A DNA stretch of 64,000 nt, from positions 7,014 to 71,013 of the forward strand of contig JBFLXH010000005.1 of NCBI GenBank assembly GCA_040757295.1. The letters are read 5' to 3'. The notes beneath the pieces were generated by a model. The model searched no databases. It had not been told where the DNA came from and saw only the letters and a list, made by a program, of their open reading frames with translations. Each line of letters starts with the position of its first letter. Position 1 is the first letter of the stretch. Below, piece after piece: positions 20,737 through 55,024 of this stretch. A program made the position numbers and the translations under genes. The DNA is from Bacillota bacterium. GTDB taxonomy: Bacteria; Bacillota; PH28-bin88.

Positions 20737-20913
20737 GCAAAACAAAACGCCTCTCCTATGACAAGAAGAGGCATGAAAACTTATCCTCCTCTTATCTCTC
20801 AGGAATAACCTGCAGGAATTGGCACCAATTCAAATAATCACGGCTATGCGGCCATCAATTCGAACGGTTGCCGGGCTTCATCGGGCCAGTCCCTCCACCT
20901 CTCTAGATAAGAG
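20737..20913 (-). ncRNA. SAM-I (S-box) riboswitch with intrinsic terminator, upstream of metY
   Basis: Minus strand reads CUCUUAUCUAGAGAGGUGGAGGGACUGGCCCGAUGAAGCCCGGCAACC ... GGUGCCAAUUCCUGCAGG ... GAGAGAUAAGAG, the canonical S-box core. It is followed by a GCCUCU ... AGAGGC hairpin + GUUUUGUUUUGC. Confidence 0.85.
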
Positions 20914-20979: not shown

Positions 20980-23490
20980 CTACCACCCGAAGGCCTGCCG
21001 CCAAAAATCCCTCCCCCGGCTTTCACCAAGCTCTGTCTCGACCCGCCAATCCCTGCCGTTACTCCAAAAGGTAATGGCGCCGTGCAGGTCATTCCGGCAA
21101 ACGGGGATCTCCCTTTCCTGCCAATACTTGATCACTTCAGGGGCAGGGTGATCAAAGGAATTGCGCTCACCAACCTGAATTACCGCTGCCTGAGGTTGGA
21201 TGGCAGCCAAAAAACCCCTATGCAACCCATATTTGCTGCCATGATGGGGAATCAGGAAAATGTCACAGTCCAGGTAATCCCCGTAATCTTGCAGCAAAAG
21301 TTCCATAGCTTCCTTTTCAATATCGCCGGTAAGGAGGATACTAGTCAGTCCATAATTGAGCTTTAGCACCAGAGAGTTGTTGTTGTAATCTGAACGGGTT
21401 CCGCTCAAGGGTTTGTCAGGCGCCAGGACCTGAATTTCTATCCGGGGGTCCAGCCAAAGTTGATCGCCCTTCCTGGCCGAAGCCCCCGGAATTTGTCTTT
21501 GAGACAGCAAGGAGAAAAACTTTTTGTACTCAGCTGCAAAGAATTCCGGAGGAGGTGTAATCACCAGTTGGACAGGCATTTTTTCCACTACTGCAAACAA
21601 CCCCGTCAAGTGATCGCCGTGGGGGTGGGTGTTAATCACCATATCAAGCCGCCGAATCCCGTGCCTGACAAGATAGGGTACAATAACCTTAGCTCCTGGG
21701 TCAAACAGGGAAGGCCCTTCTGCACCTCCCCCGTCCACCAGTGCCGTACGTCCGGCCGGGGTACGGATAAAAATGGCGCTGCCTTGACCCACATCCAAAA
21801 AAGCTACCTGCAGCAAATCTTTCTGGGAGTAGCTGCGTACCAAGGGCGCCACTCCCAGCAAGCAAACCGCTAATACAACAGCTATCAGTTTGATCCCTTG
21901 TGGTCTTCTAGTAGAATACTCTTTTTCCTGTGCGCGACCAACCCAATACTCCCGAAACATAATTAATGCTGAATAAAACAGGACTATTTCAATGATTGCA
22001 GGAGTTCTAATCCTATAGACGGTACCAGGCAAATAGGAGATACCCTCGACAGCCCATGTCAAGAAACTGATCACTGCACCATCAGCCAGGGCAAACATTG
22101 CCCCTACAGGCGGCAGGACAAGAGAGAACAAAAACATCACCAGACCCAGCATGACTACCAGCCCCACTAGCGGCACAACCAGGGGGTTTGCCACCATCGC
22201 CCCCGGGGACAGGATATTAAAGTAATAGGCAGTTAAGGGTACCAGGGCTAGCTGGGCCGCCAGGGGAACAACCAAAAGCTTACGCCAAGGGGGCAAAAAG
22301 GACAGCATGCTGTCCAAAAAGGGATACAGGTATACCAGGCCCCATGTAGCTGTGAAAGACAGCTGAAACCCCGGTTCAAAAAGGGCATTGGGGTTAAAAA
22401 GAAGGATAACAAAAGCAGCAACCCCCAGGGCAGTATAAAAATCCCTATCCCGGTCCCATAAGTAAGCGAATAAGGCCATGGATGCCATCAGACCAGCCCG
22501 TACCACTGAAGGGGTAAAACCGGTGACCGCTGCATAGAACCAAAGGACGGGCAGGGCAAGGAATACCAGCTTCTGTCTCGGCACCCCCAAGAGACGGCTG
22601 ATTTCATATAAAAACAACAACAGGAAACCTACATGAAGGCCAGACACTGCAAAGACGTGCATCACGCCCAAGTCGCGGAATCGCTCCACCTCTCCCTTTT
22701 CCAGGCGCTCCTTGTCTCCGAACAGCAGGGCCAGCAGCACTCCCGCCTGTTCAGCCGGCAGCGCCCTGTCCACCAGGGCGACAACCCGGGATTTGGCGGC
22801 CAACGACACCGCCACCACCGGATTACCCGGCCGCCTGCCTACCGGCTCCATACTGCCGGGGTTGTCCACCAGCATGCGGGTGAATACGCCCCGCCGGGCC
22901 AGGTAAGACCGGTAATCGAACTCCCCGGGGTTACGCCTGGTTGGAGGTAGCTCAAGCTGACCATGGATATGCAGGACGTCCCCGTAACGGTAAAGGGGAG
23001 CCCCCCACGGGGTGCGCCCCGGTTCTCTGTTGTTCGACCCGTAGCTGCCCAGGTTGTCACTACTCGTACCGGTTTGTTTCCCTCCTGCCGGGCGGGGTGC
23101 ATAGGCTACCACCTGCACCTTTTCGTCTATCCTTTGGTACCGGCCCTCCTGCCGCACCTCCTGCGCCCGCAGGGTATAGACCACCCGGTTGGCGTACACC
23201 TGCGGCTCTTCCACCACCACGCCTGTCAGAACCAGGTGCGTTTGCAGCCAATCCCCCAGGGCTGAGCGGTTTCGTTCCGCGGCTAGGGCAGCCCAAAACA
23301 AACCTATGACCAGGAAGCAGCCCAACACCAGCCAGGTATTGAACCGCCACCCCCGCCGGTACCCCATCGCTCCGGCCAACAGCAGCACCGCCGCAATTAA
23401 CGCCGTAAGGCCCAGGGATAAATTAACCCTCTGGGCCAAAGCAATTCCTGCAGTAAAAGCCGCGACAGTCATCACCAACGGGCGCTGCAT
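20980..23490 (-). CDS. comEC: DNA internalization-related competence protein ComEC/Rec2 (with C-terminal metallo-beta-lactamase domain)
   Basis: 836 aa, polytopic membrane N-terminal half, C-terminal VINTHPHGDHLTGL motif. GGGAGGGG 5 nt before the ATG. Confidence 0.85.
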   Translation of the reverse strand: MQRPLVMTVAAFTAGIALAQRVNLSLGLTALIAAVLLLAGAMGYRRGWRFNTWLVLGCFLVIGLFWAALAAERNRSALGDWLQTHLVLTGVVVEEPQVYANRVVYTLRAQEVRQEGRYQRIDEKVQVVAYAPRPAGGKQTGTSSDNLGSYGSNNREPGRTPWGAPLYRYGDVLHIHGQLELPPTRRNPGEFDYRSYLARRGVFTRMLVDNPGSMEPVGRRPGNPVVAVSLAAKSRVVALVDRALPAEQAGVLLALLFGDKERLEKGEVERFRDLGVMHVFAVSGLHVGFLLLFLYEISRLLGVPRQKLVFLALPVLWFYAAVTGFTPSVVRAGLMASMALFAYLWDRDRDFYTALGVAAFVILLFNPNALFEPGFQLSFTATWGLVYLYPFLDSMLSFLPPWRKLLVVPLAAQLALVPLTAYYFNILSPGAMVANPLVVPLVGLVVMLGLVMFLFSLVLPPVGAMFALADGAVISFLTWAVEGISYLPGTVYRIRTPAIIEIVLFYSALIMFREYWVGRAQEKEYSTRRPQGIKLIAVVLAVCLLGVAPLVRSYSQKDLLQVAFLDVGQGSAIFIRTPAGRTALVDGGGAEGPSLFDPGAKVIVPYLVRHGIRRLDMVINTHPHGDHLTGLFAVVEKMPVQLVITPPPEFFAAEYKKFFSLLSQRQIPGASARKGDQLWLDPRIEIQVLAPDKPLSGTRSDYNNNSLVLKLNYGLTSILLTGDIEKEAMELLLQDYGDYLDCDIFLIPHHGSKYGLHRGFLAAIQPQAAVIQVGERNSFDHPAPEVIKYWQEREIPVCRNDLHGAITFWSNGRDWRVETELGESRGRDFWRQAFGW

Positions 23491-23583
23491 CCGGTCCCCT
23501 CCCGCCGGGATTTCTTATACCTCGAGAAAATTCGCCCATGACCGGCAATATCCTGCAACGACATGTTAATAAGCCTTTTTCCC

Positions 23584-23870
23584 ATGCCTAGCCGAAAAAC
23601 AATTTGCTAGGTTGGGCAGACCGGTGATCGGAAGATGCCTCCACCTACCAGATGTGCTCCTAGCTACCGTCAGGAGGGATATGCCCATTACCGGGTCGTT
23701 GTCCATTCCTCTTCACTCGCGCCGCCGGTTATAACCCTGCCAGGCCGGAAGGCTAACCCCGGTACGCCTCCCGTCGATGCTTTACATGCAGGACGTAGAG
23801 GAGGCCCTTTTCCCGGTCAAAACGTAGGATAACCCGCCAGTCACCAACTCTGTATCGCCATATGTCCGCA
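23584..23870. repeat. 287-bp direct repeat, copy 1 (covers the last ~40 codons of the RelE-like toxin gene plus ~170 bp downstream)
   Basis: Near-identical to 25345-25629 except for one ~50-bp divergent patch. Confidence 0.7.
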
Positions 23871-24013
23871 GTACCTTCAAGTTTCTTTAAGTTCACAGCC
23901 TCCGGGTGCTGTGTTAACCTTTCCAGCGCGGCTACTATCCGTTCCCTAGTTGTCCTGTCCAACCTTGCCAGGTCTTTTAGGGCCGGTCTGGTCATCTCTA
24001 GCCGCACATTCAT
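23753..24013 (-). CDS. RelE/ParE-family type II toxin
   Basis: C-terminus GDWRVILRFDREKGLLYVLHVKHRREAYRG, typical of RelE/ParE. The ATG overlaps the upstream antitoxin stop as ATGA (24010-24013). Confidence 0.7.
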   Translation of the reverse strand: MNVRLEMTRPALKDLARLDRTTRERIVAALERLTQHPEAVNLKKLEGTADIWRYRVGDWRVILRFDREKGLLYVLHVKHRREAYRG

Positions 24014-24267
24014 AGACCAAGCTCCTTTTTGGCTTGCTCCCAAGGTATTGTGTCGCCCTGGGCGATGGCTTTTTCAGCCTCGCGGATTGCCGCCAACTCT
24101 TCCGGCTCTAGCGGTTCGTCATCTACCGGTGCCGTTTCTAAGGCTCTCAGAAGCGGGTCATCAATCTTCATGCTTAGGAGGAATTCCAAAAACCTTTTGG
24201 CTACCGGCATTTCCTGATCCGGCAAGGCCTCCACCAACCTGTGCAGGTCTTCTTTAATGACACTCAA
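24010..24267 (-). CDS. Cognate antitoxin (small acidic protein) of the RelE/ParE-like toxin
   Basis: 85 aa. TTG start 7 nt after GGAGG. Overlaps the toxin start by 4 nt. Confidence 0.55.
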   Translation of the reverse strand: MSVIKEDLHRLVEALPDQEMPVAKRFLEFLLSMKIDDPLLRALETAPVDDEPLEPEELAAIREAEKAIAQGDTIPWEQAKKELGL

Positions 24268-24349
24268 TGCTATGCCTCCTTTACTCTTGGCAATTCACTA
24301 TTCCGGTCCGATTTTTCCGGCCTTCTGACTGGCTTTCAGTTATTCAATG

Positions 24350-24759
24350 CTAGCTAACCCCAACTCTTTCGATTAGATTACGAGTAAGTTGCAAAAAGAC
24401 TTCCGCTTGTTTCACCGTATCGGCGGCCTCCGACTTGCTAACCAGATAAAACTCGTTATAATCACTTTCCTCCCGAATATCTTTGGCGTTTAATAGTATT
24501 CTACCAAACTCCTTTGGAACGATCCCTGTCTTAACAAAATGCTGGTTAAACAAGGAAATTACACCCGAGTGCTTCTTAGAATCGAATCAAGGCCTTTAGT
24601 GGCTAGAAGTGCCCTGGCCCCGTGCAAGAGAGCGTAATACGCCCTTGAGGTGGCATCGGCAAAATGAGATTGGTCAAGCAGCATTTTAGCACTTTCAAGT
24701 TTCTTTTCCGCCATTTCCAACCTATACCGAGCCAATTCTAAGCGGTCTATTGACTCCAT
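24350..24759 (-). pseudogene. HEPN-domain toxin gene split by a frameshift caused by a 5-bp tandem duplication (GATTC GATTC, plus-strand complement at 24579-24588)
   Basis: The N-terminal ORF (24559-24759, ... AYYALLHGARALLATKGLDS) and C-terminal ORF (24350-24553, ... FNQHFVKTG ... AKDIREESDYN) are in different frames. Removing one GATTC restores GLDSKKHSGVISLFNQHFVKTG. Confidence 0.65.
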
Positions 24760-25079
24760 AGTGCATACCCCTCGGACAGCACTTCTCTGACAAAAGGAAC
24801 CCCTTTCCTTTTGAAAGATTCAAATTCGTCTTCTCCATATATCTTGAGCGATAGGTCAACACCGTATTGCAGATTTACGTCCAACACATAATCATAAATC
24901 CGGGATCTGTCAATAAGCGATCTGTCCTTTACCACAATTAAAACATCAAAATCCGAATCCCGTCGAGCATCTCCCCTCGCGCGGGAACCAAACAACTGAA
25001 CCAAACGGATTTCGCCGGGGTATAACTCATTCAAATAATTGACTAACCCCTGCAACAGCTTCCTTTCACTTGTTTTCAT
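24747..25079 (-). CDS. Minimal nucleotidyltransferase (MNT) antitoxin of the HEPN/MNT pair
   Basis: GSRARGDARRDSDFDVLIV motif. ATG at 25077-25079 (MKTSERKLL) lies 10 nt after AGAGGGGG. Overlaps the HEPN start by 13 nt. Confidence 0.7.
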   Translation of the reverse strand: MKTSERKLLQGLVNYLNELYPGEIRLVQLFGSRARGDARRDSDFDVLIVVKDRSLIDRSRIYDYVLDVNLQYGVDLSLKIYGEDEFESFKRKGVPFVREVLSEGYALWSQ

Positions 25080-25344
25080 TAAAAACGGACCCCCTCTTTG
25101 GCTAAGGCCTTGCAATTCCTGGTACTATAATACCACAAACACTTGTTCCTGGCAAAGATCGTTTATCGTTCCCAGCACTGACGCATGAAAAATACCCGCA
25201 GACCGCTATTTTTTAACACCTTCACAAGAAAATAGCGCGAGAAGTTATTTCGTTCCAACCCCTGTAAGCCCTGATATGCCTGCGTTTTAAAAGTCATGCG
25301 TCCGTGCTGTGTCGTTCCTCTTGGTTGCCGAGCTGTTGACCTTG

Positions 25345-25629
25345 GATGCCTAGCCGAAAAACAATTTGCTAGGTTGGGCAGACCGGTGATCGGAAGATGC
25401 CTCCACCTACCAGATGTGCTCCTACTACCGCCAGGGGGGATTGCCAATTATCGTTTGGTCGTTGTCCATTCCTCTTCACTCGCACCGGTTATAACCCTGC
25501 CAGGCCGGAAGGCTAACCCCGGTACGCCTCCCGTCGATGCTTCACATGCAGGACGTAGAGGAGGCCCTTTTCCCGGTCAAACGTAGGATAACCCGCCAGT
25601 CACCAACTCTATACCGCCATATGTCCGCA
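25345..25629. repeat. 287-bp direct repeat, copy 2 (contains a frameshifted relic of the RelE-like 3' end)
   Basis: Same sequence as copy 1. The toxin-derived part lacks one T (CGTTTGACC vs CGTTTTGACC), giving a premature stop. ORFs 25163-25447 and 25296-25586 inside it are not credible. Confidence 0.7.
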
Positions 25630-25799
25630 AATCAGCTTGTTGGGCTGGCTGGTTCCGTCGTAGCTGAACCGGGTCAGCTGATTCCCCGCCACGGCGTCGT
25701 CCTGGGTGGGGACATAGAAAAAGGTCCTGCGCTTTTCATGAGCGTTGGGCCTTTTTCTTATGACTCTAACTAGAAGTTTGCTCCTAAGGTATAACAACT

Positions 25800-26219
25800 C
25801 TACGATGTAATTTCTTCGAAGAAAAATTTAGGCGTGACAATTTCAATGCCCCTGAACACACCTAGATTCAGCAAATGCTCGTCACCGGTAACAATGCGCG
25901 AAGCCTTCCCGGCCGCGGCACATTCTAAAACCATGTCGTCCTTGGGGTCTTCGGCGATGGCTTTGATTTTTTCTGCAGGATGAATTAATAATACCCAAGG
26001 AAATTCGAGAAGTTTTTGCAAGACCTCCAGCCGTTCCTCAATCCCGCCTAATACGTTAAATTTCTTGCGTGCAAGGACTACCGAATATTCTCTAATAAGT
26101 TCCGGACTTACAACAGGAACAAATTTACCAAAAACCCACCCGTCAAGCACCCTGACGGGGTAGCTTCCCGTGCTTAGCATACCGGAAATTAGGACATTGG
26201 TATCAATTACGACTCGCAT
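25800..26219 (-). CDS. PIN-domain toxin (VapC-like)
   Basis: MRVVIDTNVLISG ... N-terminus, PIN fold. Overlaps the upstream antitoxin by 13 nt. Confidence 0.75.
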   Translation of the reverse strand: MRVVIDTNVLISGMLSTGSYPVRVLDGWVFGKFVPVVSPELIREYSVVLARKKFNVLGGIEERLEVLQKLLEFPWVLLIHPAEKIKAIAEDPKDDMVLECAAAGKASRIVTGDEHLLNLGVFRGIEIVTPKFFFEEITS

Positions 26220-26491
26220 GAACGTGCTTCCTCTATTTCATACATGACATCCTTTTCGCTTAAACCGGCCTGTTCCCCACGTTCCCGCATTTCGTCCAGT
26301 ATGCTCTTTACTTCCAATTGTTTCGCTTTTTCGGACAGCTTTTTGAATTCCTCGTAGGAGGAATAACTCATAAGAACACCTTTTGGCTTTGAGCGTGATG
26401 AGATAATTACTACATCATCTTTCTTTTCAATTTCCTTTAGGTATTTCCCTAACAGAGGTCGTATTTTGTCAATACCCACTATTTTCTCCAT
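26207..26491 (-). CDS. Phd/YefM-type antitoxin
   Basis: DVVIISSRSKPKGVLMSYSSYEEF resembles the YefM/Phd core. AAAGAGGAGGG 5 nt before the ATG. Confidence 0.6.
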   Translation of the reverse strand: MEKIVGIDKIRPLLGKYLKEIEKKDDVVIISSRSKPKGVLMSYSSYEEFKKLSEKAKQLEVKSILDEMRERGEQAGLSEKDVMYEIEEARSCES

Positions 26492-26509
26492 GTTAACCCT
26501 CCTCTTTCG

Positions 26510-26553
26510 TTAATCTTAAGATTAATGATAATATTAATATGGAAAAAGGTCAA
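26510..26553 (-). promoter_or_regulatory. Promoter (-35 TTGACC, -10 TATCAT) with a perfect 16-bp palindromic operator TTAATCTTAAGATTAA between the -10 and the RBS of the Phd/PIN operon
   Basis: Read directly. The palindrome is at 26510-26525. Confidence 0.45.
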
Positions 26554-27015
26554 CCCTTAGTAGCCGGTTCCCACCGGTTCCCGCGACAGAACCGGGCGCA
26601 GGTGACAGTATCTCCATTCTCCTTCTCGTATAGAAATAAAAAACAGGTTTGCAAAAAACAATTTCCCCTGCCCCCGTGTCCCAAATGCCTAGTTTGGTAT
26701 AATCATAAGCGAAAAAGCATGCTCCTTCGGTTTGTTTTTCTTTAGCCGATTAAACAATACCACAGAAAGCGCATGCTTTTTCTTTTTTTTATTTAATTCT
26801 TTTGTTTTAGGTATTGCTCTCGCAAGCCATCGCGAAGCGATTTCGTTCTTCTCAATCTGTCGCATTTCAGGCTCTGAATATGATATCCTTACTGATGCCG
26901 GTATATTAAGCTAAGAAATGTCGGGAGTGTTGGCAAATTAGCGTAAAAAAATCGGCATTAACCTGGCCTTTGGGATTTACATTAATTACATGTATTAATG
27001 AGAGGCTACCCAAGG

Positions 27016-27804
27016 CTATTTCTTGTCTTGCCCCGCTTCATTAAGCACTCTTTTTTCTCCTCCACAAACCGGACAGTTCTGCATGGAAAGGGGAATTTCT
27101 AGTCCGCATTCTTCCATTAATTCTTTATCGACAAGAATTTTGTTTGTTGGCCCATCAGCTATTACTTCTCCATTGTTTAATATAATCGTTCTTTCGCATA
27201 GTTCCAATATCATATCCAAATCGTGAGATGCAATAATCTTTGTATGAGTAAATCCTTGAAGCAACCTGATTAACAGTCGTCTTGATTTTGGGTCGAGGGC
27301 AGAGCTTGGTTCATCCATGACCAATATATCAGGGTTCATCGCCAATATTGTCGCAATTGCTGCTGCCCTCTTTTCTCCCCCTGAAAGTTTATACGGTGGC
27401 CGGTCCGATAAGGACAAAATTCCGACAGTTTCAAGAGCCCTTTTTACCCTCTTTTCAACCTCTTCTTCGGGTAGCTTATAGTTGCGGGGCCCAAATGCTA
27501 CATCATCGTAGACAGAGGTCGTAAATAATTGATCATTAGGATCTTGGAAGACCATCCCCACTTTTTGCCGGATTATCGGTATGGTCTTCTTTGTTACCGG
27601 CATCTCACCTACCCGGATTTCTCCTTCATTGGGTAACAACACTCCGACCAGATGCATCAAAAGTGTAGATTTTCCTGCCCCATTTGCACCTACGATACCC
27701 ACAGATTCTCCATGCAGGATTTGAAAAGCAATCCCATTCAGCGCTTGCCGTCCATCAGCATACCTAAATTTTAAATTGTTTACTTCAATAATATGGTGAC
27801 TCAT
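27016..27804 (-). CDS. cbiO: ECF-type cobalt/nickel transporter ATPase (CbiO/EcfA-like)
   Basis: Walker A GANGAGKST, ABC signature LSGGEKRAAAIA, Walker B ILVMDEP. The ATG overlaps the cbiQ stop (ATGA). Confidence 0.8.
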   Translation of the reverse strand: MSHHIIEVNNLKFRYADGRQALNGIAFQILHGESVGIVGANGAGKSTLLMHLVGVLLPNEGEIRVGEMPVTKKTIPIIRQKVGMVFQDPNDQLFTTSVYDDVAFGPRNYKLPEEEVEKRVKRALETVGILSLSDRPPYKLSGGEKRAAAIATILAMNPDILVMDEPSSALDPKSRRLLIRLLQGFTHTKIIASHDLDMILELCERTIILNNGEVIADGPTNKILVDKELMEECGLEIPLSMQNCPVCGGEKRVLNEAGQDKK

Positions 27805-28622
27805 CTTCCTTCTCCTGTCATTAATAAACCTAAAAACGCAGGTATGTTAATAAATCTAACGATTACAAAAAATAAACTCCATCCTGCGAAATAAGCAATA
27901 TCACCAATCATCATTTTATTTTGTTTGCTAATCCTGTACTCCCCTGTAAATCCCCGACAGCACATAGAATGATAAACACGTTGCGCTCTTTCCAGCGTCC
28001 TCATTAATAACTGTCCGGTCAACGAACCCCAATTACTTATTTTGATACCCTTTGTATCTGGAGAGCGCAACGAATATGCACACAACGCACGCCCAACTTC
28101 CTCAATTAACAATGTTATATACCGGTATGTTAGAAGAAGTTGCATTATGAAAACCTTGGGAATTCTCATCATTCTAAGGGCTGACGCAACCCTTGTTATC
28201 CCCGTTGTCGCTATAAGCAGGAGGGCTGCCAATATTGTTAGAGATCCCTTAACCAGGATGGAAAAAAAGGATATCCAACCTCCGGAAATTTGTATCCATG
28301 GCAATATCACTACGGGATTGGTATCAAAAAAAGGATTAAAAACCCCTATGCCAATGATAAAAGGCATGACAAAAAGCATTCTTTTTAAAATTGGCACTAC
28401 AGGAATATCCGCCAGGGTTATTACAACAACAGGATAGAATATAAGGGGCAACAATCCGCTTAATTGATATTTGTCAAAAGATACGGTAACAAATAAAAAC
28501 ATGAGTGTGGTTAACACCTTCATCAGTGGATGTATCTGATGAATATTTGTTCTTTTTCCTGCAAGTTCATCAAGTAGCCTTATATTGTTTAATAATTCCA
28601 TCATATTTACCATATCAATCAT
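27801..28622 (-). CDS. cbiQ: ECF transporter transmembrane (T) component CbiQ
   Basis: 273-aa polytopic membrane protein of the CbiQ family, between cbiMN and cbiO. Confidence 0.75.
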   Translation of the reverse strand: MIDMVNMMELLNNIRLLDELAGKRTNIHQIHPLMKVLTTLMFLFVTVSFDKYQLSGLLPLIFYPVVVITLADIPVVPILKRMLFVMPFIIGIGVFNPFFDTNPVVILPWIQISGGWISFFSILVKGSLTILAALLLIATTGITRVASALRMMRIPKVFIMQLLLTYRYITLLIEEVGRALCAYSLRSPDTKGIKISNWGSLTGQLLMRTLERAQRVYHSMCCRGFTGEYRISKQNKMMIGDIAYFAGWSLFFVIVRFINIPAFLGLLMTGEGR

Positions 28623-28674
28623 CAGATCCTATAAATATTATTATGGCGGGTTTAAAGCCCGCCTACTTTTTTTT

Positions 28675-29727
28675 CTAAACAACGCTTGGTCTTTTTCGTT
28701 TTTTGAATAAAATTATGCAAAAACCTGTTATCCCAGCTAAAATTAAAGTCATGATGCCGCCAACCAACCCTGATATACTGGTTCCGGCATCCACAACAGG
28801 CCATGCTTCTTCAGTCTTTGTTTCACCTGTATTAGTTTCCTGTTCCTGAGTTTTAAAGCTGTAATCAGGTAAAAATGCAGTCTTCTCCTGAATGGAGGCC
28901 AATGTTTGATGGATACCATCGGGAACCTCAAGTTCCTCTTTACCCGAAGTATTAAATACAGACCACTCCAAGCCGTCTGGATGTGCAGATGCAAACCAAG
29001 AAAGAAACCCGCCAGTAAAAACCGCAACGATAGCAAGCACGGCAAGAACCTGCTTAATTGGAATTGTTCCCAACGCCTCACCTGACGATGCCTTCTCAAT
29101 GATTTCAGGGCGTGCCTTCCACACAAATCCAACAACTGCAGCTGTAATAAGGCCCTCCACCATTCCTATGGCCAGGTGAATAGGCTGCATTAACAGTAGG
29201 AAGGTGCCAAAAGGTAATTCCGTTTTTCCTGAGAAGAGTGTTTCCAATACTACACTGAACGCCCCAAGTTGAAGACCTATGATTGCAGACACCATTGTCC
29301 CAATAAATATTCGGCTAGGGGAATATCCCCTTCGCATGATTTGTTTATAAATCAAAGGATAAGCTATAAAGCATGTAAAAAAACCAAGATTAAAAATATT
29401 GCATCCCAGTGCAAGTAATCCGCCATCTGCAAAGAACAGTGCCTGGATAACTAAAATAGATGCCATAGTCAGAAAGCCCGCATAAGGGCCTAGTAATATT
29501 GCAAGCAATAAACCTCCACCTAAATGCCCACTAGAACCAGTTGCAGGAATGGAAAAGTTAATCATCTGGGCAGCAAACACAAATGCTCCCATTACCCCCA
29601 TTAAAGGTATTTTTTGCTCATCCAAGTCATTCTCAACTTTTTTTGTGGCATAAGCAGCAACCCCTGCTGTTACTGCCCACATGGTTCCGCCTACAACCGG
29701 TGAAATCAAGGCGTCTGCCATATGCAT
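28675..29727 (-). CDS. cbiM: CbiM substrate-capture component fused to a CbiN-like C-terminal segment
   Basis: N-terminus MHMADALISP ... (CbiM starts MH-x-x-DG/A). ATG at 29725-29727 lies 8 nt after AGGAGGAG. The C-terminal extra TM segment plus KKRKRP resembles CbiN. Confidence 0.75.
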   Translation of the reverse strand: MHMADALISPVVGGTMWAVTAGVAAYATKKVENDLDEQKIPLMGVMGAFVFAAQMINFSIPATGSSGHLGGGLLLAILLGPYAGFLTMASILVIQALFFADGGLLALGCNIFNLGFFTCFIAYPLIYKQIMRRGYSPSRIFIGTMVSAIIGLQLGAFSVVLETLFSGKTELPFGTFLLLMQPIHLAIGMVEGLITAAVVGFVWKARPEIIEKASSGEALGTIPIKQVLAVLAIVAVFTGGFLSWFASAHPDGLEWSVFNTSGKEELEVPDGIHQTLASIQEKTAFLPDYSFKTQEQETNTGETKTEEAWPVVDAGTSISGLVGGIMTLILAGITGFCIILFKKRKRPSVV

Positions 29728-30123
29728 ATGTATCTCCTCCTTAGCAGACCTCTTTTTACCGACAAAAAGCCACAAAGGCAATACACTGCTTCTGCAATGT
29801 GATCAACCTTCGTGGCTGTCTATCCTAAGAATAATGTTTTGCAGTTTCTAACTTAACCTTTTTGAGCCTTCATGACTCTTTTATACAAAATCTATTATAG
29901 TAAACAAAATCGCACTTGTCTACAATAATTCTGGCTGGTTATGGTGACTACGGGCTTGCACTAGAATTTGGCAGATGGGTTTTATGCAACGGTAACAGTA
30001 TTGCCATGGTTTTGGCGGGCTAGTCTCAACAACACCTTGCTGAGCCACGCCAGGTAAAAGTTGTTAAGAATATTCTTGTACATTACTATGATAATGATAT
30101 AATGTATATGGAGGTGTTACAGA

Positions 30124-30363
30124 ATGCCGCAAAAAATGGTTCGCAAACAGGTCTATCTTACTTCCGTGCAGGAACAAAAATTAAAAAAACTCGCCCGGAA
30201 AAACAGTGTAACAGAAGCCGAAATACTCCGTAGGGCTATTGATAATTACATTCAAGAAGAGCCGTTAGAAGAAGATCCCCTACTTGAGCTATGCGGTTGT
30301 TACGATGGAGAGGAGGATGAATCTCTCCATCATGACGAGTATGTCTATGGGCAAAAATCGTAA
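30124..30363 (+). CDS. Ribbon-helix-helix (CopG/VapB-like) antitoxin
   Basis: 79 aa with an acidic C-terminus. A consensus promoter (TTGTAC-17-TATAAT) and GGAGGTG RBS lie upstream. Confidence 0.6.
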   Translation: MPQKMVRKQVYLTSVQEQKLKKLARKNSVTEAEILRRAIDNYIQEEPLEEDPLLELCGCYDGEEDESLHHDEYVYGQKS

Positions 30364-30784
30364 GATCTTCGTTGATACTAGTGGGTTGCTGGCCTTGTTT
30401 GACCGCAAGGACCAGTATCACCAATCCGCAGCGGAATACTACCGCAAGATCTCCACGCGAAAAAAGGTCATAACCAACTTAATTGTGGCAGAAACGTACA
30501 CGCGTTTGAGACAGCAAGCGGGCTTCGATCTGGCCATGACATTTCTGGCAGCAATAGACGCAGCTAAAAACAGTGGCCTGCTGGACCTTGTGTATAGCAA
30601 TGCTCGGATTGAAACATTGTCTAGAAGCTATTTGGACAAATACCATGATCATAAACTTTCATACACTGACGCTGTCAGTTTTGCCGTTATCCTGCAACCA
30701 CGAAGTGAGATCCATGAAATCTTTGCGTATGACCGCCATTTCATTATGACCAAGAAGCTGGTTTGCCCGGGACTTGGCAAATGA
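30341..30784 (+). CDS. PIN-domain toxin (VapC family)
   Basis: IFVDTSGLLALFDRKDQYH ... Overlaps the antitoxin 3' end by ~20 nt. The start (30341 or 30347) is uncertain. Confidence 0.7.
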   Translation: MSMGKNRKIFVDTSGLLALFDRKDQYHQSAAEYYRKISTRKKVITNLIVAETYTRLRQQAGFDLAMTFLAAIDAAKNSGLLDLVYSNARIETLSRSYLDKYHDHKLSYTDAVSFAVILQPRSEIHEIFAYDRHFIMTKKLVCPGLGK

Positions 30785-30839
30785 ACTACCAGGGTTTTAG
30801 AATTTTCACCGAATGAACTTCCTGAAAGGAGTGATCAAC

Positions 30840-31394
30840 TTGCGCCGCGTGTTAATGGTGATCGACATGCAAAATGATTTTGTGGCAGAAGTAGGAGCCT
30901 TGAGTTTCCCGGAAGCCCGCCAGGTGATACCTTTTGTAACCGCTAAGGTTAAGGAAGCCCTGGCCAGGGGATATGAGGTCCTGTTCACGCTGGATACCCA
31001 TACCCCCGGTGACCTTGAGTTTAATAAGTTTCCTCCTCATTGCCTTGCCGATACACCCGGGCAAGAACTAATCCCAGAACTGCAGCAAATTGTCAATGAC
31101 GAATTGAAAACCGACCGGATTCACTTGGTCCGCAAAAACCGTTACAGCGCTTTCCACGGTACTGAACTGGACCAATTGTTGGGCCTGAGCCCCGGCTCGT
31201 CAAAGGAAAAGGTGGCCGAGGTGGAACTGGTGGGGGTATGTACAAATATCTGCTGCTTTTTCACGGCGGAAGAACTGGCGAACCGCGATGTACCGGTTAC
31301 GGCCTACCAGGAGGGCATGGCCAGTTTCGACCAAACCGCCCACCAATATGCCCTGGAACAAATGAAGAGTGTATTGGGGGTGAAAGTCGTCTAG
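30840..31394 (+). CDS. Isochorismatase-family cysteine hydrolase
   Basis: LMVIDMQNDF motif. TTG start 6 nt after AGGAGTG. The ORF-track start at 30813 has no RBS. Confidence 0.75.
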   Translation: MRRVLMVIDMQNDFVAEVGALSFPEARQVIPFVTAKVKEALARGYEVLFTLDTHTPGDLEFNKFPPHCLADTPGQELIPELQQIVNDELKTDRIHLVRKNRYSAFHGTELDQLLGLSPGSSKEKVAEVELVGVCTNICCFFTAEELANRDVPVTAYQEGMASFDQTAHQYALEQMKSVLGVKVV

Positions 31395-31493
31395 CCACGT
31401 ATTTATCCATAGTCTATCAATACTCGTGATTTCTCATAACCAATACTTCTTAAAAGGTTAGTCATAATGTTCAGGTTGCAGGATCCTACTGAA

Positions 31494-31522
31494 TTCTGAA
31501 TACCTGAATAGTAACAAACTCC
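31494..31522. repeat. 29-bp fragment of the 410-bp repeat family end motif (CTGAATTCTGAATACCTGAATAGTAACA)
   Basis: Matches 8895-8920 and the reverse complement of 43425-43460. Confidence 0.35.
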
Positions 31523-31746
31523 CGGCAGAAAGGGAAAAAAATGCCTGCGGCATAAACAGGCGGCGCTTGAGAGGAAAAAACCGGTTAAAATTCTCACCTG
31601 TTTTGATAAATAGGTGTATATTCGCCCAGCTTTGGGCATAATCCTCTACCATAAAAGATTAGATACCCTTCTTTTGCAGGAAATCCTTGCCGCTTGAAGA
31701 AATTATTGCTGAAAGCAAGACGCTGGCTTACCTCTTTGAAGGAGTG

Positions 31747-32323
31747 ATGCGCTATACTAAAAATAACCAAAGCGCCTTATACCGCCCTGTTCCCTGTTCC
31801 TGCGGTACTAGTAAGCTGTGGTTCTGTTGATTATTCACCCAACATTATCACAATCGCCTGGACCGGCACCATGTGCTCGGAACCTCCTATGGTCTATGTT
31901 AGTATCAGGCCGGGAAGACATTCATTTAGCATTATTGAAGCCACAAGAGATTTTGTCATCAATATCCCCTCGGCAAGTATGGCTCGAGCGGTGGACCTGT
32001 GCGGTACTGTCTCGGGCAGGAATGTTGACAAGTTTCTGGAATGCGGTTTTACTCCCGTACCAGCTACTGTCGTGAAGGCGCCGCTAATAAATGAGTGCCC
32101 GGTAAATATTGAGTGCGCTGTTAAACAGGTATTGCCCCTTGGCACCCACCATGCTTTTGTCGCTGAGGTGGTAGCCGTAAATATAGACGCGGCAGTGATT
32201 GACGATAAAGGCCGGATCGACATGGAACGATTACAGCCTTACGCCTACTGCCTGAATGAATACCGGCAAGTTTCTTCCCTTTTAGGCGTGCACGGCTTTT
32301 CCCTAAAAAACAAAGGCAAATAG
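31747..32323 (+). pseudogene. Flavin reductase-like (FMN-binding split-barrel) gene interrupted by a 7-bp tandem duplication (CTGTTCC CTGTTCC at 31787-31800)
   Basis: Frame 1 gives MRYTKNNQSALYRPVP then a stop at 31828. Frame +1 continues as AVLVSCGSVDYSPNIITIAWTGTMCSEPPMVYVSIRPG ... Deleting one heptamer gives a contiguous ... ALYRPVPAVLVSCGSVD ... protein. Confidence 0.6.
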
Positions 32324-32362
32324 AAAAAAGATCTTTGAAGGCCTGTAGGGTAATGCAGGTCC

Positions 32363-32899
32363 TTATTCTTTTAGCTGCTTAAGTATTTGTTTAGAGTAGT
32401 AGGATTTGGGAGTTCCGGTCCTGGCAACGAACTGGGCCAGGCCCCGCTCACCCCGGTTGTAGGCGGTTAAGGCCTTGTCCAAATCTCCATGATACCGCTG
32501 AATGAGATAAGAGAGAATATACGCAGTCAGTTTGATGTTGAATTCCGGGTCAAACAGCATCTCCGGGTTGAAATCCTTAACCCCTAAACGCTCAGCAGCC
32601 CAGGCTCCGGTTCCGGGCATAATTTGGCCTAACCCCATAGCTCCTTTATGGCTTACCGCCATTGGATCAAAATTGCTTTCAAACCGGATCACCTCGTGCA
32701 AGAGCTCGGGTGTCAATTGAGGGTATTTGGCCGCCTGTCTGATGATGGTGGCTTCCAGGTCAAAGGGCTTTTCCTCCCCTGGCGGCTCCAGGGACTGACC
32801 CTGTTCTTTCTCTGGTTCTCCTGGCTGTAAAAGAGTAAAGCCAACCGTGAAAAGAAGAAATAGGCATATTAATGCCCCAGCCGTTACTTGCCGTGCCAT
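32363..32899 (-). CDS. Lytic transglycosylase (SLT domain) with signal peptide/membrane anchor
   Basis: ESNFDPMAVSHKGAMGLGQIMPGT is the SLT catalytic motif. Confidence 0.75.
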   Translation of the reverse strand: MARQVTAGALICLFLLFTVGFTLLQPGEPEKEQGQSLEPPGEEKPFDLEATIIRQAAKYPQLTPELLHEVIRFESNFDPMAVSHKGAMGLGQIMPGTGAWAAERLGVKDFNPEMLFDPEFNIKLTAYILSYLIQRYHGDLDKALTAYNRGERGLAQFVARTGTPKSYYSKQILKQLKE

Positions 32900-33133
32900 A
32901 TTACCTTCACCCCGTTTGCCGGAAAAAATCCGCTTAATCTAGCATAAACTTATGGTTATGCTAAATTATTATTTCTTGGATAATATTACACCTGATTCCG
33001 GCAAAAGGGAAGGAAACTTTTTACATTACGTTGTACTATTAGGTTTTTGGATAGCGGAAATGGTGAATTAAGGGAGATGGCCAGGTAAGCAAACGGTCTT
33101 CCTCCGTCGCCCAAGGGCCGCCGTTATGGATGA

Positions 33134-33164
33134 GCATAAAACGAAAGCCTGCAAGCATGCAGGC
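33134..33164 (-). terminator. Intrinsic terminator after the thiolase gene (GCCUGCA-UGCU-UGCAGGC + UUUCGUUUUAUGC)
   Basis: Perfect palindrome 33147-33164 followed by a U-rich tract on the minus strand. Confidence 0.6.
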
Positions 33165-33190
33165 CGAAAGACTTGTTTGCACCCTGATTT

Positions 33191-34366
33191 TTAACGTTCC
33201 ACAATGATGGCCATTCCCATGCCGCCACCGATACAAAGGGTGGCCAGACCCCTCTTGACATCCCGCCGTTTCATCTCGTACAGGAGAGTGGTAAGGATGC
33301 GGGCGCCGGTACACCCTACCGGATGGCCCAGGCCCACACCGCTGCCGTTGACATTGACAATATCCCTATTCAAACCTAAGAGCTTTTCACAGGCCAAATA
33401 CTGGGCCGCAAAAGCCTCGTTCACCTCAATCAGGTCGATATCCGCCAAGGACAGCCCAGCTTTCTGCAAAGCCTTTTGAGTGGCAGGCACTGGCCCGTAG
33501 CCCATCAATTCAGGTTCTACGCCGGCCCAAGCATAAGACACCACTTTGGCCAAAGGTTCTAGGCCTAAAGAGAGAGCCTTGGCGGCAGACATTAGCACCA
33601 AAGCTGCGGCGCCGTCATTGATGCTGGAGGAATTACCGGCAGTGACTGTCCCACCCGGGCGGAATGCGGGGGCTAGTTTAGCCAGTTTCTCTAGGCTGAT
33701 GTCTTTCCGGGGATGTTCATCCTTCTCCACTACAATAGGAGGGCCCTTGCGCTGGGGAACCGCTACAGGCACGACTTCTTCCAAGAAGCGGCCTGTTTCC
33801 CAAGCCTCTACCGCTTTCTGGTGACTGCGTTGAGCGATCTCATCCTGTTCCTCCCGGGTAATGGCATACTTATCTGCTAATCTTTCGGCAGTTTCACCCA
33901 TCATTATTTTGTGGTCCGGATCCGTCAACAATTCCCACATAGCGTCTGTCATCTGCCCGTGCATCATCCTTTGGCCCCAGCGGGCGTCTTTCAGTACATA
34001 GGGGGCTGAACTCATGCTTTCGGTTCCGCCGGCAATCATCACCTGGGCATCACCGGCGGTAATTGCCTGGCAGGCTGATACAACCGCCTGTAAGCCGGAT
34101 GCGCACTGGCGCTGCACAGTATAGGCTGTGGTTTCTTTCGGAAAACCTGCTCTAAGGGCAGCAACCCTGGCCGTATTGGGCTCGTCGGTCCGCTGGATGG
34201 CATTACCCAGAATTATTTCTTCCACTAGCTCAGGGGTTATTCCCGCCCGCTTGACAACCTCTTGCAAGACAACGGAAGCCAGCTGGTTTGCCTGCAGGTC
34301 TTTCAAAGCCCCGCCAAATTCGCCGATAGGAGTTCTGGCTGCTGAGACGATTACTGTTTCTGGCAT
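33191..34366 (-). CDS. Acetyl-CoA C-acetyltransferase (thiolase II)
   Basis: [15 protein letters not shown] ... thiolase N-terminus, with the C-terminal [12 protein letters not shown] motif. Confidence 0.85.
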
Positions 34367-34396
34367 TTTTCCATCTCCTTTTTAGCATATCTCTCT

Positions 34397-34987
34397 TTAA
34401 TAAACCGCAATCAATTCCTTTACTTGATTATACTTGGCTTCTCCGATGCCGGAGACATTGGTAATATCCTTAATATCCCGGAAAGGTCCTTTGCTGTTCC
34501 TGTAATCAATAATGCGCTGAGCCAAAGCAGGGCCGATCCCCGGCAGGTTTTTCAGTTGCTCCAGGGTGGCGGTATTAATATTTATTAAGCCTGGCTGTAA
34601 GGCCGCTGCCGCTCCTTCGGCATGGGTCAGTGCCGCTCCAACCCTTGGCACGGTAATCTTTTGGCCATCAATGAGGGGAGCAGCCAAATTAAGGGCCTGC
34701 AGGTCAGCCTCCTCCAAGGGTTTAGCCTTTTCCACCCCGTCCACTACCCGGGAGCCCTTTGGCACCCGGTACACCCCGGGAAACTGTACCGCCCCGGAAA
34801 CATGGATCACAACCTCCTGTTGGACCGGGGTTTGCTCCCGAGCTGGCAAATTATTTGTCCCAGCTGAAATCACTTGCGGTGGTGCCGGCTTGGACGTCCA
34901 CCGGGCATATTTGATGCCAGCGCCAAAAAGCAGCGCCGCCACTAACAAAAGGAGCAGCGCCTGGGCTCGACGGTCCATCTGAATCAA
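34397..34987 (-). CDS. comEA: Competence protein ComEA (membrane-anchored tandem helix-hairpin-helix DNA-binding protein)
   Basis: N-terminal TM; C-terminal INTATLEQLKNLPGIGPALAQRIIDYR ... ITNVSGIGEAKYNQV HhH motifs. TTG start 6 nt after AAAGGGGGG. Confidence 0.8.
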   Translation of the reverse strand: MIQMDRRAQALLLLLVAALLFGAGIKYARWTSKPAPPQVISAGTNNLPAREQTPVQQEVVIHVSGAVQFPGVYRVPKGSRVVDGVEKAKPLEEADLQALNLAAPLIDGQKITVPRVGAALTHAEGAAAALQPGLININTATLEQLKNLPGIGPALAQRIIDYRNSKGPFRDIKDITNVSGIGEAKYNQVKELIAVY

Positions 34988-37642: not shown

Positions 37643-37695
37643 TTTCTCCATCACCTCAAAGACTAAATAGGGACTAATTGTAGGATTCCGGCGCT

Positions 37696-37965
37696 AAAAG
37701 AAAAACCTCCCGCCCCATGCCTTGGGACGGGAAGTTTTATTTCCCGCGTTACCACCCAAATTGGTAATAATAAGTAATCATTACTACCCTCTCAAGGTTT
37801 ATTAACGGCAACCAGCCGGCACAGGTTAAAAATTCACCTGCACAGCTCCCGGGCGAGTTCAGCGGGCTTCCTGCTGTTTTTCACCATCCAACAGCTCTCT
37901 GATAAAGCTGACCCAGCCTAATGCTCCCGTTCACTGCTTTTCCCATTAGTTGATTAATAATTAAC
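37696..37965 (-). ncRNA. T-box riboswitch leader (Leu, specifier CUC region) with intrinsic terminator, upstream of leuS
   Basis: The T-box sequence AAUUUGGGUGGUAACGCGG is the reverse complement of 37746-37763. It is followed by the terminator CUUCCCGUCCC ... GGGGCGGGAGG + U-run. Stem I contains AGAGA and GAACUCGCC. Confidence 0.7.
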
Positions 37966-39035: not shown

Positions 39036-39460
39036 CCTATTTATCACAGATGGCTACCCGCTCTAAGGAACGGGGACACACCGCTTACAAATCGCTCTTG
39101 CCGCAGAAGCACTCTAAAGTTAAGGTTACAGGGGACATGTCTACCGCATTCATCCTTAACGCGGAATGTCCCCAACGCGTTCGCTTCTTTAAAGCGGCGG
39201 GATATGCTCGGCATGAAATTCGCTTTGAGGCCACATTTAATCAAGGAATAATTGGTGGCCTCGCTCATTATATGCTCGGCGAGGAATAAAATTTGATTAC
39301 AGTCAATGAAGCCGAGCATGAAATTCGCTTTGAGGCCACATTTAATCAAGGAATAATTGGTGGCCTCGCTCATTTTAAGAGCGGCTACGCCATTGTATTA
39401 ACTGGCTCTAAGCTTCAGCGGGGGTAGCAATCCCCCGCTGAAGCTTAGAGCCAGTTGAAG
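39036..39460. repeat. Repeat-dense non-coding region: two tandem 63-bp direct repeats (39206-39268, 39311-39373) each with an 8-bp-stem hairpin, plus a 21-bp-arm perfect palindrome (39402-39450)
   Basis: GAGGCCAC-N20-GTGGCCTC units, and GGCTCTAAGCTTCAGCGGGGG-tagcaat-CCCCCGCTGAAGCTTAGAGCC. Homologous units occur at 17862-17983 and 55025-55125. ORF 39044-39373 is an artefact of the tandem repeat. Confidence 0.55.
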
Positions 39461-54985: not shown

Positions 54986-55024
54986 TTTATCCCTCCTCCA
55001 ATTTATCTTATAATGAGCAAGGCC

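Follow-up and report, generated by a model that had tools for sequence, protein, structure and literature searches.

What occupies the space between the competence genes comEC and comEA in a Bacillota bacterium of which we analysed a 64-kb stretch of DNA (GenBank assembly GCA_040757295.1, contig JBFLXH010000005.1; hereafter, the window), and how might it have come to be there? The two genes, at 20980-23490(-) and 34397-34987(-), are 10.9 kb apart, as the initial annotation had claimed in speaking of ~11 kb, and the latter had seen in this interval one accessory island, inserted between the two genes and holding four toxin-antitoxin (TA) pairs. The accessory character of the DNA, which is TA-rich, largely foreign in composition and absent from relatives, stands, and four pairs (antitoxin-ParE, MNT-HEPN, Phd-PIN3 and RHH-PIN) are recovered by Pfam and gene arrangement, although the HEPN toxin gene is broken. 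By contrast, the idea of one ~11-kb insertion between intact genes must be abandoned, as the boundary on the comEC side lies inside comEC, at about 22648, and two genes of the interval, coding for a thiolase and a flavin reductase, are ancestral. Instead, the interval reads as a patchwork of separately acquired accessory DNA, in which the first third of comEC appears to be foreign and to have been linked, on arrival, to TA cassettes shared with a distantly related uncultured bacterium.

Genes were called from a listing of open reading frames (ORFs) and from profile searches with Pfam, NCBIfam and PADLOC, while Rfam was searched at its gathering threshold in the whole window and at E <= 1 in 23400-32000. 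Composition was referred to 32 core genes, whose GC content at third codon positions (GC3) is 0.53 +/- 0.03. The relatives are coded L001 (Clostridiales bacterium PH28_bin88), L081-L086 and L171-L174, and all comparators are metagenome-assembled genomes (MAGs) or short metagenome contigs.

The mosaic structure of comEC is seen both in its identity to relatives and in its composition. Codons 1-~280 are 78-98% (protein) and 80-93% (nucleotide, nt) identical to PH28_bin88 and only 35-62% (nt) to L081, whereas from about nt 890 on the gene is 70-87% identical to L081 and 35-70% to PH28_bin88 (both nt). A maximum chi-square (MaxChi) test on 865 informative sites places the breakpoint at nt 855/858 (window 22636/22633; chi2 311), with counts of 279:35 to the left of the switch and 146:405 to its right, and none of 1000 permutations reached the observed value. 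There is also a sharp GC step at ~22.6 kb: the 5′ part has a GC content of 0.63 and a GC3 of 0.74 (z +5.3 and +6.7, respectively, against the 32 core genes), while the 3′ part, with 0.51 and 0.55, resembles the core; the comEC of PH28_bin88 has a GC content of ~0.60-0.62. The switch falls within the first strongly conserved block of comEC, ...ERFRDLGVMHVFA/VSGLHVGF... (...GVMHVFA/VSGLH..., the slash marking the switch), where the foreign 5′ module is joined in frame to the native 3′ part, and comEC is a single open frame of 836 codons. Neither the displaced native 5′ end of comEC nor fragments of leuS or comEA were found inside the island of the window.

The same cassettes, as well as similar comEC 5′ copies, occur in other lineages. 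Although the core genes of PH28_bin88 are only 67-77% identical to those of the window in nucleotides, the Phd-PIN3 cassette reaches 99% identity to its counterpart there and the MNT-HEPN cassette 97% to that of L174. Upstream of comEC, PH28_bin88 carries an array that begins with a comEC 5′ remnant (72 nt of upstream region, nt 1-124 and nt 798-827), continues with Phd-PIN3 followed by 223 nt of upstream region and comEC nt 1-866 (an open 305-codon frame), and ends with a 78-amino-acid (aa) ORF and antitoxin-ParE, followed by the upstream region and full-length comEC. An undeleted version of its first junction is found in L171, an ENA scaffold from a PH28-like strain. The truncated comEC copies in L001 and L171 stop at ...ATGCATGTCTTTGC, which corresponds to nt ~843 of the window comEC, ~15 nt from the breakpoint, and the 23 nt beyond this point recur in two units whose cassettes differ (local alignment score 49, reached by 0 of 500 shuffles). 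Among the three comEC 5′ alleles, synonymous divergence (dS) is ~0.5 and the ratio of nonsynonymous to synonymous divergence (dN/dS) 0.26-0.30, and the truncated copy, still open over 302 codons, has neither stop nor frameshift; this selective constraint and open frame therefore argue that each allele diverged within a functioning gene in a host of its own, the three being united only afterwards, and not through an old duplication in situ. In L174 (JGI Ga0104751_1090341), a further comEC 5′ allele, 77% identical and truncated near nt 235, is directly followed by the MNT-HEPN cassette (97% identical to window 25172-24317). Self-comparison of the 171 fetched loci revealed comEC 5′ duplications only in the lineages of the window and of PH28_bin88, and no integrase or transposase was found in 21 kb of the PH28_bin88 contig.

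Some other features of these loci deserve mention. Positions 1-1264 of L174 are permuted, with the comEC 5′ fragment, MNT-HEPN and a leuS 3′ fragment (aa 745-775, E 6e-9) in one orientation, an order suggestive of a duplication junction or of a circle running through leuS...comEC. The 78-aa ORF of L001 (8965-9219; MYVRVKQVKGHQYYYLQHSKKEEGKVKSVHVAYLG...), which precedes antitoxin-ParE, is absent from the window and has no meaningful Pfam hit; its N-terminal motif may recall the start of some IS4/IS1634-type transposases. A left-end similarity upstream of the MNT cassette to the shared 23-nt sequence, suggestive by eye, was reached by 20-82 of 500 shuffles and was dropped.

The ancestral gene order may be read from the closer relatives. 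L081-L086 (a “Syntrophomonadaceae bacterium” MAG and JGI, ENA and Logan contigs) are 79-86% identical to the window in all flanking genes (nt) and have the order leuS-comEA-thiolase-tRNA_edit-(YoeB fragment)-M20 peptidase-flavin reductase-comEC-metY-thiD-thiL-pdxA. The flanks of L172 and L173 show the same 79-86% identity; after tRNA_edit, an SBF transporter and a RelB antitoxin are added in L172, and L173 diverges completely. In all four related genotypes leuS-comEA-thiolase is kept, and flavin reductase-comEC-metY is found in the L081-type loci that reach that far (L081-L084). As the thiolase follows comEA and the flavin reductase adjoins comEC in relatives, both genes are ancestral. In seven more distant Firmicute loci (Moorellales-like and others), the order is leuS-comEA-comEC, with comEA abutting comEC and no comEB. 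The missing comEB, which had been noted at this locus, is indeed absent here, but its absence is uninformative because it is absent from this position in all relatives, as is normal for the clade. Homology to L081 stops 2 nt before the thiolase stop (33189), restarts over 31613-32330, which holds the flavin reductase with ~140 nt of promoter, and then resumes only at 22733, inside comEC, which leaves 32331-33188 and ~22648-31612 as window-specific DNA. Alignment with close relatives thus yielded none with an identical order: the TA, cbi, isochorismatase and SLT content is absent in this form from every relative found, while the placing of the thiolase and flavin reductase is ancestral. From these comparisons, the comEA-comEC spacer is plastic across the whole family. 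The YoeB fragment (L081 5847-5990) or the RelB and SBF transporter genes (L172 6493-6756), which lie between tRNA_edit and the M20 peptidase, show that this spacer has another variable spot with TA genes, at the site taken by SLT in the window.

The features of the interval and its flanks are the following (window coordinates).

20980-23490, minus strand: comEC, 836 codons, with DUF4131, Competence and metallo-beta-lactamase domains
20980-22647, minus strand: native 3′ two-thirds of comEC (codons ~282-836), by identity to L081 and core-like GC
22648-23490, minus strand: foreign, PH28_bin88-type 5′ third of comEC (codons 1-~281; DUF4131/OB-fold module and first transmembrane helices)
23491-23752, minus strand: “up”, the 262 nt upstream of comEC, carried along with the foreign 5′ end; ribosome-binding site GGGAGGGG
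23584-23870: direct repeat R1 (118 nt of the ParE 3′ end and “up” from -262 to -94)
25346-25629: direct repeat R2 (frameshifted ParE 3′ remnant and partial “up”), ending where the MNT-HEPN cassette starts
23753-24267, minus strand: cassette 1, antitoxin candidate and RelE/ParE toxin
23753-24013/24043, minus strand: RelE/ParE toxin (PF05016)
24010-24267, minus strand: antitoxin candidate, 85 aa, overlapping the toxin; no family
24317-25345, minus strand: cassette 2, MNT antitoxin and HEPN toxin pseudogene, with limits from the 97% match to L174
24350-24553 and 24559-24759, minus strand: HEPN gene in two pieces (5-bp duplication at 24578-24587)
24747-25079/25115, minus strand: MNT nucleotidyltransferase (PF01909)
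25630-25804: spacer X, 175 nt, unique, between the PIN_3 stop and R2; no L001 or L171 match
25805-26691, minus strand: cassette 3, Phd antitoxin and PIN_3 toxin, with promoter and palindromic operator
25800-26219, minus strand: PIN_3 toxin (PF13470)
26207-26491, minus strand: Phd antitoxin (PF02604)
27016-29727, minus strand: low-GC putative Co/Ni uptake operon of the energy-coupling factor (ECF) type, cbiM-PDGLE/cbiQ/cbiO (Pfam, NCBIfam)
27016-27804, minus strand: cbiO (ABC_tran)
27801-28622, minus strand: cbiQ (TIGR02454)
28675-29727, minus strand: cbiM with fused PDGLE domain (PF01891, PF13190)
30124-30784, plus strand: cassette 4, RHH antitoxin and PIN (VapC-like) toxin, by profile matches
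30124-30363, plus strand: RHH antitoxin (RHH_3)
30332-30784, plus strand: PIN toxin (PF01850)
30849-31394, plus strand: isochorismatase-family hydrolase (PF00857, 2.5e-30)
31395-31612: non-coding left edge of the window-specific block, without Pfam remnants; L081 homology restarts at ~31613
31613-32330, plus strand: flavin reductase (gene end 32323) and promoter region, ancestral, intact and outside the island
32331-33188, minus strand: second window-specific segment, with SLT in place of the relatives' genes
32363-32899, minus strand: SLT lytic transglycosylase, by profile match
33191-34366, minus strand: thiolase, ancestral flank
34397-34987, minus strand: comEA, ancestral flank
35159-37654, minus strand: leuS, with a T-box at 37720-37943 (Rfam)

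Read toward comEC, the proximal part thus runs from the cbiO stop through ~325 unmatched nt, Phd-PIN3 (26691-25805), X, R2, MNT-HEPN with its broken toxin gene (25345-24317), antitoxin-ParE and “up” to the foreign 5′ and the native 3′ parts of comEC; within the ~325-nt stretch, 19 nt near 26870 match the left-end region of L171. The ~287-bp direct repeats described earlier are real (R1 and R2 are 94% identical over 290 aligned columns, E = 1e-123), but they bracket ParE-antitoxin and HEPN-MNT only, rather than the whole left part. Each repeat consists of the last 118 nt of the ParE gene and ~170 nt of the comEC upstream region; the ParE remnant in R2 is frameshifted by a 1-nt deletion, and R2 is 89% identical to L001 9621-9896. 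No direct repeat flanks the whole block, and it is the internal R1/R2 and the tandem comEC 5′ copies of PH28_bin88 that duplicate the target. The “up” region itself is 85-87% identical to both L001 copies and has no Rfam match, and the 262-nt leader/repeat folds no better than its shuffles (z +0.39), which therefore speaks against both a structured RNA and an attC-like element. With neither an integrase nor excess structure between the cassettes, the array lacks the intI and attC hairpins of an integron. Spacer X has no Pfam hit and no match in L001 or L171; one of its frames encodes ...GNQLTRFSYDGTSQPNKLI, which resembles a YD/RHS repeat, and X may be a fragment of an unrelated gene.

By profile match, the TA genes are ordinary members of their families, barring the broken HEPN and the antitoxin without a family. 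The RelE/ParE toxin matches PF05016 (2.7e-14, 53.9 bits against a cutoff of 23), although it stays below the cutoff of TIGR02385, and it is overlapped at its start (NCBI start) by 4 nt by the 85-aa antitoxin candidate, which is kept beside the toxin in PH28_bin88 and for which neither Pfam nor NCBIfam gives a match even at E <= 1. Cassette 1 is 82% identical to that of PH28_bin88 in nucleotides, and its antitoxin and ParE proteins are 96% and 93% identical. ParE homologues at <= 70% identity were also considered as comparators, but lie in unrelated contexts with another antitoxin. In cassette 2, the MNT protein matches PF01909 (5e-11) and, below cutoff, the NCBIfam MntA-like model (3e-8), as well as the PADLOC candidate families PDC-S09 and PDC-M05A. 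Apart from a weak match of RelE to the CARF-RelE model, no other protein matches a PADLOC candidate family, and the defence part of the earlier label, a defence/addiction islet, is no more than tentative. The HEPN toxin gene is split by a 5-bp tandem duplication (GAATC GAATC, plus strand, 24578-24587) that shifts the frame; its halves sit in different frames, whereas the intact HEPN partners of related MNT genes have 135 aa, and a 97%-identical MNT-HEPN copy from another metagenome lacks the duplication. As there is no intact HEPN beside MNT, this is a degenerate module and not a complete type VII system. More distant MNT-HEPN homologues (82-85%) were set aside as comparators, having no linkage to comEC.

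Cassette 3 is a Phd/YefM-PIN pair in which both genes are intact and overlap by 13 nt (Phd, PF02604, 6.9e-10; PIN_3, PF13470, 4.1e-25, and TIGR00305 above cutoff). It is 99.1% identical in nucleotides to PH28_bin88 over 755 nt, the match extending to 26691 against L171, and its junctions are reproduced in Logan contigs from two runs. In cassette 4, the PIN protein matches PF01850 (1.8e-6, 29 bits against 23.6), while the RHH_3 match (8.6e-4, 19.7 bits) is below the cutoff of 21.6; the gene arrangement, with an overlap of 32 nt, fits an RHH-PIN pair. There is a promoter-like site in each cassette, that of cassette 2 being at 25155-25127. Erosion is visible in several places: HEPN is frameshifted differently in the window and in L174, PIN_3 is lost after codon 15 in L171, and comEC 5′ copies have internal deletions or are lost.

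The composition of the interval deviates from that of the core genes in both GC3 and GC. GC3 is 0.35-0.46 in HEPN/MNT, Phd-PIN3, cbi and RHH, and the segments are heterogeneous, with values from 0.35 to 0.74. The distal 5 kb (cbi, RHH-PIN and isochorismatase), of a different and mostly low-GC composition, was probably acquired separately, and no comparator for cbiM-PDGLE/Q/O, RHH-PIN and isochorismatase was found among the relatives or databases scanned. The reported cbiMNQO transporter holds for CbiM (PF01891 1.6e-60, starting MHMADA..., with an N-terminal Met-His), CbiQ (TIGR02454, 127 bits against a cutoff of 111.8) and CbiO (ABC_tran 6e-33), which have the components of a CbiMNQO ECF transporter, putatively for Co or Ni. 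However, there is no cbiN ORF, and a PDGLE domain (PF13190, 1.8e-32) is fused to CbiM instead. The GC3 of the cbi genes is 0.35-0.38 (z about -5), and their nearest DNA in the plasmid database is that of low-GC Clostridia, at 68%.

Profile searches also recovered the isochorismatase, lytic transglycosylase and thiolase named in the initial annotation, together with its TA families among the small ORFs, but its disrupted flavin reductase proved to be intact. In fact, the 189-codon frame of the gene, running from 31754, aligns with the L081 gene end to end at 84% identity in both nucleotides and amino acids, the start context is the same in both, and NCBI annotates the gene as intact with a 178-aa product. 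Its conserved frame has no ATG, GTG or TTG start; AGGAG is followed by 9 nt and then ATA, with an overlapping out-of-frame ATG (31740-31790). The same context is present in L081 7930-7970 (84% identity), which suggests a non-canonical start or a recoding event. The SLT segment stands where relatives have tRNA_edit, YoeB/RelB remnants and the M20 peptidase.

The sequence itself is reproduced by other assemblies. A second NCBI assembly is 100% identical to the window over the 20 kb compared, and contigs from Logan, which uses a different, k-mer assembler, match the window at 100% identity over cbiM-cbiQ-cbiO-Phd-PIN3-X-R2 in one run and at 99.5% over the junctions from the cbiO end through Phd-PIN3 and X to R2 in a second. 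An unbranched Logan contig runs through the whole 836-codon comEC, including the breakpoint, and Logan contigs break off within R1/R2-type repeats, as expected. The earlier statement that no integrase or transposase is visible was upheld among the ORFs of the interval and the six-frame pieces of all intergenic gaps (Pfam, E <= 1) and, on inspection, elsewhere in the window, which otherwise reads as housekeeping (grpE, hrcA, lepA, holA, mreB, obg, proAB, rodA and others). The interval thus lacks the integrase or recombinase of its own that marks a classical genomic island. No conjugation, phage or replication genes were found among the profile-searched ORFs and gaps of the interval, no tRNA gene by a tRNA scan of the window, and no Rfam family in the island or repeats, nor a riboswitch 5′ of cbiM (E <= 1, 23400-32000). 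Searches further afield were also mostly negative: IMG/VR scans with the ComEC N-terminus and PIN_3 gave no relatives, a metagenome scan with the ComEC N-terminus nothing nearer than 49%, and a protein word search PH28_bin88 only, while distant blastn against a plasmid database gave only ~68% matches to low-GC Clostridia cbi genes and one Phd-PIN pair (Ammonifex plasmid). A full-text search of the literature returned no account of comEC serving as a target for integration in which a surrogate 5′ end is supplied.

On balance, we lean toward a recombination hotspot that was filled piecemeal, in which TA cassettes would travel with a replacement comEC 5′ end and be fixed by RecA-type recombination. 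Starting from the ancestral order leuS-comEA-thiolase-...-flavin reductase-comEC shown by the relatives, the segment after the thiolase was swapped for the SLT gene, and ~1.05 kb of native DNA (the comEC upstream region and the first ~850 nt of comEC) was replaced by ~9 kb of foreign DNA (22648-31612). The 4 kb nearest comEC is an array in decay, in which self-contained TA cassettes alternate with copies of the region upstream of comEC, and the mobile unit may have the form TA cassette, 223-nt upstream region and comEC nt 1-866, as found in tandem in PH28_bin88-like genomes, each incoming unit leaving the displaced resident 5′ end upstream as a truncated copy. Units would move between lineages as DNA segments, with a circular or permuted donor leading to insertion-duplication and a second crossover further upstream to replacement. 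The crossover would be anchored where diverged comEC genes first become similar enough for it, in their conserved block, and comEC would survive unbroken, since a promoter and an N-terminal module come with every unit. Loss of the segment could then be penalised by the TA pairs through addiction, while deletions and toxin-inactivating mutations would erode the array. The mosaic structure, the breakpoint, the identity of cassettes across lineages and the lack of recombinase genes are seen directly in the sequences, whereas we infer how the DNA recombined, in which direction it moved and whether the TA pairs are addictive. Several observations weigh against this scenario: homologous recombination between ~20% diverged sequences is inefficient, a RecA insertion needs a circular or permuted donor and none was seen, and no single simple rule covers the junctions, the MNT-HEPN cassette of the window abutting position -94 of “up” whereas that of L174 lies between comEC nt ~235 and a leuS 3′ fragment. 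Moreover, only three or four lineages, known from MAGs or short contigs, show the pattern, and the distal cbi/VapBC/isochorismatase part has no comparator. The truncation point and the following 23 nt common to two different cassettes are exactly what a site-specific attachment (att) junction would give.

In fact, a possible but not a probable alternative is that the same units, TA cassette, “up” and comEC nt 1-866, are a minimal integrative element or a remnant of one (similar to a cis-mobilisable element), with a recombinase encoded elsewhere and an att site in the comEC sequence coding for VMHVFA/VSGLH (...GTCTTTGC...); the promoter and 5′ end that they carry would restore comEC, and repeated integration at the regenerated site would produce tandem arrays. 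Besides the common truncation point, this would account for the independent mosaic breakpoint of the window within ~15 nt of it and for the displaced resident 5′ ends kept upstream, as after integration, and it agrees with comEC 5′ alleles that diverged as functional genes. However, no integrase or transposase was found in the 64-kb window, the 21 kb of PH28_bin88 or the gaps, the two junctions of the PH28 lineage could be copies of one ancestral junction, those of MNT in L174 and the window lie at other positions, the resemblance of the MNT-HEPN left end to the shared 23 nt is not significant, and the plasmid-database and IMG/VR scans offered no viral or plasmid counterpart. Very unlikely, in turn, is that 22648-33188 is the degraded remnant of one large integrative and conjugative element (ICE) or prophage that lost its integrase, with SLT and TA as leftovers of transfer and maintenance modules; conjugative elements often carry SLT-type transglycosylases and TA pairs, and the surrogate comEC 5′ end does lie at one edge, but the ancestral flavin reductase and its promoter sit in the middle in ancestral orientation and position, GC3 varies too widely between segments, the cassettes are shared individually with other genomes (at 82%, 97% and 99%), and conjugation, phage and replication genes were not found. 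An assembly or binning artefact joining two co-occurring populations at conserved sequence might be suspected from the MAG source, the breakpoint in a conserved block and the contigs of other assemblers that break inside repeats. It seems highly improbable, as one and the same relative is syntenic with the window on either outer flank, so that two compensating mis-joins would be needed; the two NCBI assemblies are identical, and Logan contigs cross the comEC breakpoint and the cbiO-Phd-PIN3-X-R2 junctions. Finally, it is hardly conceivable that the order was inherited vertically and merely differs from that of Bacillus: the thiolase and the flavin reductase, like the lack of comEB, do go back to the ancestor, but no relative has the TA/cbi/isochorismatase/SLT content, the composition is strongly deviant, and cassettes 97-99% identical are found in organisms with ~70% identical core genes.

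Returning to the favoured piecemeal filling of a hotspot, a bolder extension, which we hold to be doubtful, is that the TA cassettes are recombinase-less selfish units carrying a surrogate promoter and a ComEC OB-fold/DUF4131 module, which would insert at the SGLH box and thereby rewrite comEC, with the displaced 5′ ends as silent copies that could switch the outward-facing domain by recombining back into the gene. If true, natural transformation would thereby be tied to TA addiction and to modular variation of ComEC.

Several known systems offer partial parallels. Elements of the SXT/R391 family reportedly integrate into the 5′ end of prfC; there too, a conserved host gene receives a new 5′ coding end and promoter from the incoming DNA and stays functional, and the old 5′ end lies on the far side. 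By contrast, SXT has its own tyrosine integrase, measures ~100 kb and supplies only a few codons, whereas here there are ~2-kb units with a TA pair only, no recombinase and a surrogate of ~1.1 kb (223 nt upstream and ~850 nt coding). Cis-mobilisable elements (CIMEs) and the tandem accretion of integrative elements are said to occur in Streptococcus thermophilus; these are likewise integrase-less units bounded by direct repeats of the target and placed in tandem at one chromosomal site, but CIMEs have short att repeats and adjoin or derive from identifiable ICEs, while no ICE, att core or recombinase acting in trans was identified here. The TA cassettes of chromosomal (super)integrons are also arrays of small, promoter-bearing and horizontally exchanged cassettes, thought to stabilise the array, from which the present one differs by the absence of intI and by an inter-cassette repeat that is a 0.2-1.1-kb comEC/leader piece instead of a 60-140-nt attC hairpin. 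Insertions into competence genes include the comK prophage of Listeria, the AbaR islands in comM of Acinetobacter and a prophage in pneumococcal comYC. As in those cases, the landing site is a gene of the DNA-uptake and transformation machinery; however, comK, comM and comYC are split and inactivated, while here comEC is one open 836-codon frame with its N-terminal module swapped. The targeting of competence genes by mobile elements is a general theme (PMC11472951). Differences from familiar systems extend to the cargo, with CbiN of CbiMNQO/NikMNQO replaced by the PDGLE domain fused to CbiM and, compared with type II and VII TA families, an inactivated HEPN and a ParE-linked antitoxin outside Pfam and NCBIfam families.

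A TA-rich variable islet is commonplace; what is unusual is its edge inside comEC, with the promoter and first ~280 codons foreign and TA-linked, and the tandem stacking, in another lineage, of cassette-plus-comEC-5′ units although no recombinase is visible. If such units were mobile on their own, they would be among the smallest integrative modules known and would show how selfish DNA can settle in a competence gene and yet not abolish it. For annotation, the case is a warning that island limits drawn at gene edges can miss chimeric core genes.

Elsewhere in the window, a ~255-nt intergenic repeat occurs at 6595-6847 (+), in the 6S RNA/lepA gap, and inverted at 43115-43365, in the proB/yhbY gap, with ~90% identity. 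On either strand its folding is far more stable than that of shuffled sequences (-107/-108 kcal/mol against -89 +/- 5, z -3.7); it has no Rfam match even at E <= 1, and it is a candidate structured RNA or element resembling a miniature inverted-repeat transposable element (MITE). Additionally, a 70-76-nt repeat is present in three copies (39211-39280, 39316-39385 and 55006-55081), two direct and one inverted, 88-94% identical and near yqeK/nadD and rodA. Ordinary RNAs detected by Rfam are a SAM riboswitch upstream of metY (20789-20913), the T-box upstream of leuS and 6S RNA (6223-6402). Lastly, the heat-shock operon includes, between hrcA and grpE, a gene for a TCP-1/thermosome-type chaperonin (2299-3858, minus strand; Cpn60_TCP1, 2.7e-107), a layout that we take to be the bacterial “group III chaperonin” arrangement.

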